NCBI GenBank assembly: GCA_934778205.1
Contig: CAKVOD010000001.1
Location: forward strand, 126,769 to 190,768
Reading direction: 5' to 3'
Length of the DNA: 64,000 bases
From: an uncultured Clostridia bacterium
Lineage (GTDB): Bacteria > Bacillota > Clostridia > Christensenellales > UBA1242
Part shown: positions 53,699 to 54,170 of the stretch, one piece after another
Layout of the letters: every line of letters begins with the position of its first letter
Numbering within the stretch: position 1 is the stretch's first letter
Made by a program: the position numbers and the translations under genes
The notes under the pieces: model-generated
Told to the model about the DNA's origin: nothing
The model's input: the letters and a program-made list of their open reading frames with translations, nothing else
The model's database searches: none

Positions 53699-53726
53699 TT
53701 GACTTATTTTTTAAAATCGCTATAAT
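53699..53726 (+). promoter_or_regulatory. Sigma-A-like promoter (TTGACT-16-TATAAT) pointing into the 53782-54170 family-A array
   Basis: TTGACT at 53699-53704 and TATAAT at 53721-53726. No ORF with an RBS lies downstream. The palindrome AGAATTTAT-TTTT-ATAAATTCT (53761-53782) sits between the promoter and the array. Confidence 0.5.
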
Positions 53727-53781
53727 TTAAAATTTTGCCATTTTTCTCGCGCTCCCTCTTAGAATTTATTTTTATAAATTC

Positions 53782-54170
53782 TAGTGGCAGAGGCCACTGC
53801 TGGCGGGGGGAGCCCCGCTGCTACAGATTTGAGTTCCTACAAGCAATTTACTTGTGCGGACGGCAAACCCACACACTTTCTACTCACTCTTATTCTCGGT
53901 GGGTGGCAGAGGCCACTGCTGCAGATTTGAGTTTCTACGCTTTAGTTACTTGCGCGGACGGCATACCGTTACACTGCTTAGTCTTTTTTGTACTCGACGG
54001 GGAAAGCACCGTTGCTGTGGGTACTGTCATTAAGTCGAAATTGTTTTTTACAAAATCTTAAGTATGTGCTCTTGCAAAAGTTTATGTTTTACTGGAAAGC
54101 CCTCTGCTGCGGTTATTACTATTACAAATGAGACGCTTGGTACAAACTCTATATTCTTATTACTTTCCAC
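53782..54170 (+). repeat. Family-A array (4-5 units, plus orientation) upstream of the AT-rich core
   Basis: H1 GTGGC-AGAG-GCCAC occurs at 53784-53797 and 53903-53916. Other heads are CGGGG-GGAG-CCCCG, CGGGG-AAAG-CACCG and CTGG-AAAG-CCCT. Preceded by a sigma-A-like promoter (53699-53726). Confidence 0.8.

Follow-up and report, generated by a model that had tools for sequence, protein, structure and literature searches.

The stretch of DNA analysed here, referred to as the window, comprises 64,000 nt with a G+C content of ~38% and derives from a member of the Clostridia that has not been cultured and is represented solely by metagenome assemblies. Within it, dnaN and dnaA diverge from a spacer of 2298 nt that houses the promoter on which our analysis centres, P1 (Table 1). 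The first-pass annotation had located this promoter next to oriC, a placement corroborated by a cumulative GC skew minimum at ~53-55 kb, i.e. in the dnaN-dnaA spacer, by the dnaN and dnaA flanks, and by a DnaA box (53587-53595) that is perfect and lies ~100 nt upstream of P1. When compared with species representatives, the DnaA protein of the window finds its best match, at 58%, among metagenome-assembled genomes of uncultured Clostridia/Christensenella-like organisms.

Table 1. Coordinates of the features of the dnaN-dnaA region (window numbering unless a relative is named)
Feature	Position	Strand	Description
dnaN	51570-52688	-	Three Pfam DNA_pol3_beta domains; divergent from dnaA
Mirror-image family-A array	53115-53376	-	nhmmer; on the other side of the core, head at 53376 abuts the core
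Conserved oriC core	53377-53698		Alignment with relatives
Promoter P1	53699-53726	+	-35 TTGACT 53699-53704, 16-nt spacer, -10 TATAAT 53721-53726
AT-only palindrome/hairpin	53760-53783		TAGAATTTAT-TTTT-ATAAATTCTA; perfect 10-bp arms; starts 34 nt past the -10
Family-A array	53784-54146	+	nhmmer; direct repeats 98 nt apart
AT-rich block of AGTACT-containing palindromic iterons	54200-54700		~33-nt period
Inverted family-A array	54733-54951	-	Head at 54951 abuts the -35 of P2
Proximal dnaA promoter P2	54952-54980	+	TTGACT-17-TGgTATACT; dnaA ATG at 54987, 6 nt past the -10
dnaA	54987-56342	+	Pfam Bac_DnaA, Bac_DnaA_C, DnaA_N
P1 28-mer pattern in relatives	L081 4815-4842; L096 5590-5617; L098 7869-7896; L100 5697-5724; L101 5793-5820		Identical hexamers and spacing
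P2 pattern, TTGACT-17-(TG)TATA(C/A)T + ATG	Window 54952-54989; L098 7966-8003; L085 1351-1389; L086 5966-6003		

The origin core contains two invariant blocks besides its perfect DnaA box: a stretch of 31 nt at 53413-53443, in which a DnaA-box-like TGTGGATAT accompanies an ATT/TAA trio-like run, and a second block at 53635-53649 (GTACTTTACGAAATT). The best-conserved part of the whole spacer, 53396-53445, includes the 31-nt block together with an AT stretch, is abutted by the (-) array head at 53376, and represents a candidate DnaA-trio/unwinding core. The segment 53388-53528 can be recognised upstream of dnaN in relatives with 83% DnaA identity. Additionally, a second and denser DnaA-box cluster occupies 50833-51146, between rpmH and the 3' end of dnaN, with six perfect TTATCCACA boxes and one near-perfect box in 314 nt; the origin may be bipartite, or DnaA may bind mainly at this cluster. 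Just downstream of parB (62498-63418), at ~63517-63532, lies TGTTTCACGTGAAACA, a perfect palindrome resembling parS.

For comparison, we used contigs with an identical DnaA (L081-L084), representing the same species as the window, and further lineages from its 90% DnaA cluster: L098/L099 (DnaA 96.0% identical in amino acids, dnaA 83% in nucleotides), L096, L100 and L101 (94-95% and 81%), and L085 (92% and 79%). Since L085 starts with the palindrome, 1362 nt upstream of dnaA, only its dnaA-mnmE side is comparable. In the spacer, L082 and L083 are identical to the window and L081 differs by ~3%, while L096 and L098-L101 have the same divergent dnaN/dnaA order, and the 407-nt stretch 53377-53783 retains 68-71% identity between three lineages. 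More distant relatives, with DnaA identities of 72-86% (L086, L089, L090, L091, L094), show the order dnaA>dnaN>rpmH>rnpA>yidC>jag; in the clade of the window (47895-56342), dnaA alone is inverted, with dnaN reading leftwards and dnaA, followed by mnmE, rightwards. No homologue of P1 is recognisable in the relatives at 72-86% DnaA identity, with their different gene order, and therefore the module can be traced only within the dnaA-inverted clade. We also considered a homologous leftward promoter in those relatives and discarded it, having found only weak, differently placed candidates beside an unrelated palindrome. Homology in these genomes does not extend beyond 53388-53528.

The promoter proposed in the first-pass annotation is present, with 11 of 12 consensus positions matched, and it is the top promoter match of its region. 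Its hexamers and their distance are those of a SigA/sigma-70-type promoter (16-18 nt spacing), although the 16-nt spacer is sub-optimal and an extended -10 is absent. P1 lies on the dnaA strand, the end of its -10 being 1260 nt from the dnaA ATG in the window, and the predicted transcription start falls at ~53733-53735. Canonical -35/-10 promoters and SD sites are used elsewhere in the genome, and across the window there are 12 sites of 11/12 quality against 2.6 expected, a 4.5-fold enrichment; most intergenic sites of this quality precede genes, including the rpmH, L10-leader and 56784 promoters. In the AT-rich 2.3-kb spacer, a first-order Markov model predicts 0.15 such sites (P~0.14), and by consensus match alone P1 is only moderately beyond chance. 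A perfect 12/12 promoter, TTGACA-18-TATAAT, occurs at 33524-33553 on the (-) strand within the called ORF 32843-33727(-), whose GTG start was probably called too far upstream.

Conservation in relatives, a check that the first-pass annotation had proposed, distinguishes P1 more clearly. Hexamers and spacing do not vary among L081, L096, L098, L100 and L101, whereas the flanking sequence and some of the spacer do: L081 keeps both hexamers and carries one G>A substitution in the spacer, and across three lineages 24 of the 28 columns are invariant, every change (3-4 substitutions) falling in the spacer. Two fully invariant hexamers at the P1 spacing occur at 21 of the 364 core positions (~6%) in the three-lineage alignment. 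Taken together, consensus match and conservation place P1 well beyond chance and, at the level of sequence, constitute good evidence for a selected promoter. Therefore, despite the AT-rich context and the 0.15 matches expected in the spacer, it is hardly credible that P1 is a functionless chance match, given that its hexamers and spacing are invariant in three lineages whose cores are only ~70% identical.

The palindrome that the first-pass annotation had described after P1 is likewise present. As RNA, it folds with -9.4 kcal/mol, a value equalled by none of 200 shuffles. Its outer arms, AGAATTTA and TAAATTCT, are invariant in the window, L081, L096, L098, L100, L101 and L085, and its centre is variable (5-12 nt between half-sites), yet pairing is kept. 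The distance from the -10 to the palindrome is constant across lineages, at 34-35 nt, and the sequence between the two is not conserved. The palindrome does not have the features of an intrinsic terminator: its stem is all A-T, it lacks a U-tract, and GTGGCAG follows directly in the window. A UUUU run is found only in L098, 5 nt past the palindrome, where the hairpin is followed by AGCGUUUUC. In a terminator scan, no (+) strand intrinsic terminator was predicted between 53727 and 54986, but the stretch from P1 to dnaA would yield 1.2 kb of untranslated, structured and AT-rich RNA that would be open to Rho.

We found no credible open reading frame downstream of P1, as had been noted before. The ORF called at 53735-54061 (108 aa) has a TTG start, no RBS and no Pfam match, and it is broken in L081, of the same species, by the loss of 212 nt, which is not a multiple of 3. 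A small ORF or leaderless peptide after P1 was ruled out, since no start codon occurs between the upstream TAA and the TAG in the frame that this TAG closes. Also rejected was an sRNA with a C-rich anti-SD seed (CUCCCUCU, 53752-53759), the leader sequence being unconserved in relatives. A Spo0A-box by P1 (TGTCGAT, 53668-53674) is unconserved in L096 and L098, though the genome encodes Spo0A. Rfam searches of the promoter region and the repeats, at both gathering and E<=5 thresholds, returned only a meaningless 16-bit match to P24.

On the dnaA side, the short distance between the -10 of P2 and the ATG is common to the window, L081, L102, L098, L096, L085 and the 83% relative L086. Because the ATG lies only 6 nt past the -10 across the clade, the dnaA mRNA is apparently leaderless in these bacteria, in contrast to the 72% relative L090, where dnaA has a 30-nt leader with an SD. 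The most compact relative, L098, has the layout P1, 34 nt, palindrome, 14 nt, P2 (TTGACT-17-TATACT), 6 nt, dnaA ATG, which makes P1 the farther of two tandem promoters, ~105 nt upstream of dnaA, with its -10 ending 104 nt before the ATG. The palindrome and the -35 of P2 are 1168 nt apart in the window (53784-54951), an interval taken up by a (+) array, the AT-rich iterons and a (-) array. Homologous AT-rich blocks of 1.3-2.3 kb, free of arrays, occupy the same position in L096, L100 and L085, and none is present in L098. From this distribution, the AT-rich block is probably ancestral, older than the arrays and lost in L098; therefore, the geometry in which P1 serves as a distal dnaA promoter in L098 may be derived. 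No DnaA box is found between P1 and P2 in the window or L098, and a TTGTGGATAAG box appears in the P2 spacer of L096, L100 and L085 only.

The AGTACT iterons (core TAAGTACTTA) also occur at 52816-52950 of the window, and at 6150-7600 of L096 and 200-1330 of L085. The dnaN-dnaA spacer holds 13 of the 23 iterons in the window, 23 of 27 in L096 and 7 of 7 in L085, and the L098 spacer has none. These sequences may be binding sites for origin proteins or, alternatively, a satellite.

The arrays consist of a repeat termed family A. A profile built from nine units and searched against the window with nhmmer identified nine arrays. Five start at or within a few bases of co-oriented stop codons, namely those of a 2519-aa ORF, spo0A (34901-35674), dnaN, dnaA and mnmE; the remaining four, at 47050(+) and at the three positions listed in Table 1, have no preceding gene. 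The unit, ~97 nt long, comprises a G+C-rich head hairpin, a conserved TGCTRCAG and a body of ~70 nt (…CCTAC…GGACGGC…CTTTCT…). Head stems vary in sequence and still pair (GTGGC/GCCAC, GCGGGG/CCCCGC, GGCGGG/CCCGCC, AGTGAC/GTCACT), and distal units are degenerate. RNAalifold applied to 16 units recovered the head hairpin alone, further stems being visible by eye. The array that was first annotated after the palindrome begins at 53784: its head hairpin, GTGGCAGAGGCCAC, spans 53784-53797, two complete units cover 53803-53902 and 53903-53998, an incomplete one reaches 54032, and degenerate sequence continues to ~54146. The unit at 54853-54753(-) is nearly identical to 53800-53902(+), and 53237-53115 shows 71% inverted similarity over 127 nt to 54026-54146, the heads of these two arrays also being similar.

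The arrays thereby form long imperfect inverted repeats, one pair of which encloses the 407-nt origin core with P1 and another the AT-rich block; dnaA, too, has an array on each side (54951- and 56345+), both pointing away from it. Such inverted pairs are potential inversion substrates, and no inverted variant was seen in the four same-species contigs.

Further interspersed repeat families, some of which share the family-A head, are found in the window at 7641-8423, 33560-33805, 47189-47887 and 59044-59164. They include a 79-nt tandem unit with a terminator-like hairpin, GGTACATAG…CTATGTACC, located after jag, a family characterised by TTCGGTCGAAATGACA… / GTCATTTCGACCGAA, and another by GGAGAAATCTCCCGGAAGGG…. 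In one interspersed copy, upstream of mnmG, a promoter-like site (59151-59178) matches 11/12 consensus positions. The ORF of 2519 aa (74-7633), behind which lies a family-A/B array, has no Pfam match at E<=1e-5.

The distribution of family A is narrow. Its units are limited to the window, L081-L084 and L102; arrays are absent from L085, L096, L098-L101 and the more distant relatives, with a single weak match elsewhere in L098. Scans of sequence collections with a strict unit pattern retrieved one metagenome contig (L102) and no viral contig (IMG/VR). The dnaA of L102 is 90% identical to that of the window in nucleotides (99.3% in amino acids), and its arrays lie at both of the dnaA-flanking positions used in the window, but their head units differ. 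The arrays therefore arose after the split from the L098 lineage and have turned over since. In L081, the (+) array is shorter by 22+190 nt and the (-) array before dnaA has one unit more than in the window; such within-species changes in copy number occur by recombination between heads. We ruled out the arrays as the cause of the dnaA inversion, which is older than they are, as array-free relatives are already inverted.

The sequence features, their conservation, the absence of arrays from relatives and the boundaries of the insertions were all observed directly. Array edges fall where conserved sequence stops: on the dnaN side, homology to array-free relatives starts at 53377/53392; at the palindrome, ATAAATTCTA is followed by A in array-free genomes and by GTGGC in the window; and at P2, CCCCGC directly precedes TTGACTTAT only in the window lineage. 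These boundaries bear on the proposal that the TAG at the start of the (+) array is the same junction seen after real stop codons, which the comparison corrects. The TA belongs to the conserved palindrome and only the G to the array, array-free relatives reading ...TTCTAA... at this site. Therefore, the stop-codon-like junction is a property of the array head and no sign of a lost gene.

At real genes, comparison with L098, L096, L085 and L102 revealed that family-A heads overlap the gene ends at 51570-51580, 56338-56354 and 58807-58826. In dnaN, the two final codons (GTG GCA) are native, L098 reading GTGGCATAA there; they double as the left arm of a head hairpin whose loop contains the stop TAG. 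The dnaA stop lies in the hairpin stem, where the TAA of L098 has become TGA in the window or TAG in L102. As read from these sequences, the junction at real genes is made by the array head and not by a fixed stop codon, and the overlap with gene ends suggests either that heads dock by microhomology or that selection reaches as far as the last codon.

Collectively, these results make it probable that P1 is a real promoter for the housekeeping sigma factor (SigA/sigma-70 type), belonging to the origin/dnaA control region and not to the array. P1 and the hairpin are older than the array, because both are conserved in four array-free genomes from three lineages (L096, L098, L100, L101). In the scenario we propose, P1 would fire rightwards from the DnaA-box core, across the AU hairpin and toward dnaA. 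In L098 it would act as the distal of two tandem dnaA promoters, and in the other relatives, and probably in the ancestor, it would read into AT-rich iterons located before the leaderless dnaA promoter. In the window lineage, a recently expanding family-A repeat would then have inserted so that its head lies precisely against the 3' side of the hairpin, and a second, inverted copy exactly at the -35 of P2. P1 transcripts would now comprise a native leader of ~50 nt and the hairpin, followed by the array as part of a long leader or of non-coding read-through toward dnaA. The array RNA would be a by-product of insertion and of origin/dnaA-directed transcription, with no dedicated array gene. We infer the activity of P1, the extent of its transcript and its role, be it in dnaA expression, origin activation or both, from sequence comparison; among possible roles we rank dnaA expression first, transcriptional activation of the origin second, and production of a short hairpin-ended regulatory RNA third.

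Since invariant blocks are common in the origin core, the conservation of P1 could also serve a replication protein rather than RNA polymerase. The 28-bp block would then be a DNA-level origin element, such as an initiator or regulator site or part of the unwinding region, with hexamers that are coincidental and a palindrome that acts as a cruciform or protein site. The block does lie ~100 nt from a perfect DnaA box and among several invariant blocks, the chance of an 11/12 match in the spacer is P~0.14, and the palindrome is pure AT without a U-tract, hence no classical terminator. We nonetheless regard this alternative as unlikely: conservation falls exactly on the hexamers and their spacing while spacer bases drift, as recognition by RNA polymerase predicts; the -35 region of P1, TTGACTTAT, recurs in the proximal dnaA promoter; and a half-site spacing that ranges from 5 to 12 nt argues against an operator for a fixed dimer.

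It is also conceivable that the product of P1 is confined to ~50-65 nt, a short RNA ending in the hairpin or an attenuated leader, which regulates P2 or origin firing, and that the array is normally not entered. The fixed distance between hairpin and -10 in all lineages, the preserved pairing and the AGCGUUUUC that follows the hairpin in L098 are consistent with such a product. However, the stem consists entirely of A-U pairs (about -8 to -11 kcal/mol), the window, L096 and L085 lack a U-run after it, the terminator scan was negative, and the 5' leader sequence is unconserved, all of which makes this reading a doubtful one.

The possibility raised by the first-pass annotation, that P1 drives a stand-alone array transcript, is supported in part. 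If P1 fires, the array would indeed be transcribed without an upstream gene, and no terminator is predicted on the way; what is not supported is that P1 is the array's own promoter, given that it is kept in array-free genomes and the array is a lineage-specific insertion. A stronger form of this idea would make P1 the dedicated promoter of a stand-alone, functional family-A RNA, arranged as leader plus array in the manner of CRISPR loci or sRNA genes. P1 points into the array with no ORF between them, the array RNA is predicted to be highly structured (z = -2.8), the head hairpins pair through changed stems, and six of the nine arrays are co-oriented with likely transcription. Against these points, P1 and the hairpin are present in four genomes without arrays, unit number varies within the species (212 nt having been lost in L081), none of the other gene-less arrays, at 47050(+), 53376(-) and 54951(-), has a comparable promoter or leader upstream, two arrays are antisense to, or upstream of, the neighbouring gene, and family A has no match in Rfam even at permissive thresholds. 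We therefore consider a dedicated array promoter very unlikely, and the view of arrays in general as independent RNA genes is not supported.

The reading of P1 as a promoter of the origin/dnaA control region has precedents in well-studied bacteria. In E. coli, dnaA is transcribed from the tandem promoters P1 and P2, and the B. subtilis dnaA promoter lies within the upstream DnaA-box cluster. The region described here similarly has two co-oriented sigma-70-type promoters upstream of dnaA by DnaA boxes, and in L098 these are ~70 nt apart with a conserved element between them. In contrast to the known systems, that element is an AT hairpin and not a DnaA box, dnaA is apparently leaderless from the proximal promoter, the promoters of the window and most relatives lie 1.2-2.3 kb apart, with AT-rich iterons (and, in the window, arrays) between them, and dnaN is divergent instead of downstream. 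A second parallel is provided by mioC and gidA, the origin-flanking promoters of E. coli that modulate initiation through transcriptional activation of oriC. P1, too, is a strong-looking promoter immediately beside the DnaA-box core, reading away into AT-rich DNA, but unlike mioC and gidA it has no attached gene.

Family-A arrays, for their part, resemble REP/BIME, BOX/RUP/Correia-type repeats and MITEs in being short GC-rich hairpin repeats that are intergenic, often after stop codons, lineage-specific and variable in copy number, with presence/absence polymorphism at orthologous sites, and that sometimes extend over gene ends. They differ from these elements in their head-to-tail direct units of ~97 nt with one head hairpin and a long body, as opposed to the alternating REP orientation and RAYT transposase of BIME/REPIN, in an array head that always docks at the edge of a conserved element, and in the lack of terminal inverted repeats, of target duplications at the junctions and of an identified transposase, none being present among the 20 window ORFs scanned against Pfam. 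CRISPR-like loci share with our locus an AT-rich promoter region followed by a direct-repeat array with hairpin-forming repeats. However, the putative leader is here conserved without an array, other arrays are leaderless, and the ~97-nt units have no unique spacers. We found no description of the family-A repeat, or of this origin, in the literature.

It is tempting to go further and regard family A as a new self-expanding intergenic element whose P1-driven array RNA is relevant to origin firing or dnaA dosage, or to its own RNA-dependent spread, though we consider this a long shot. Under such a hypothesis, the head may dock at edges that have to be kept, including stop codons (sometimes rebuilt), the -35 of a promoter, the origin hairpin and the core, and the oriC core and dnaA may have become enclosed by inverted arrays in this way.

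Under the preferred interpretation of P1 as an origin/dnaA promoter that predates the repeats, the promoter aimed into an array at this locus would be an accident of insertion, and it should not be taken to show that family-A arrays are independent RNA genes. The comparison indicates that a very young repeat family can invade an origin region and halt exactly at the boundaries of conserved elements. More generally, our analysis provides a testable map of the origin/dnaA control region in a poorly known clade of uncultured gut Clostridia, comprising a DnaA-box core, an outward promoter with a hairpin at a fixed distance, AGTACT iterons and an apparently leaderless dnaA.
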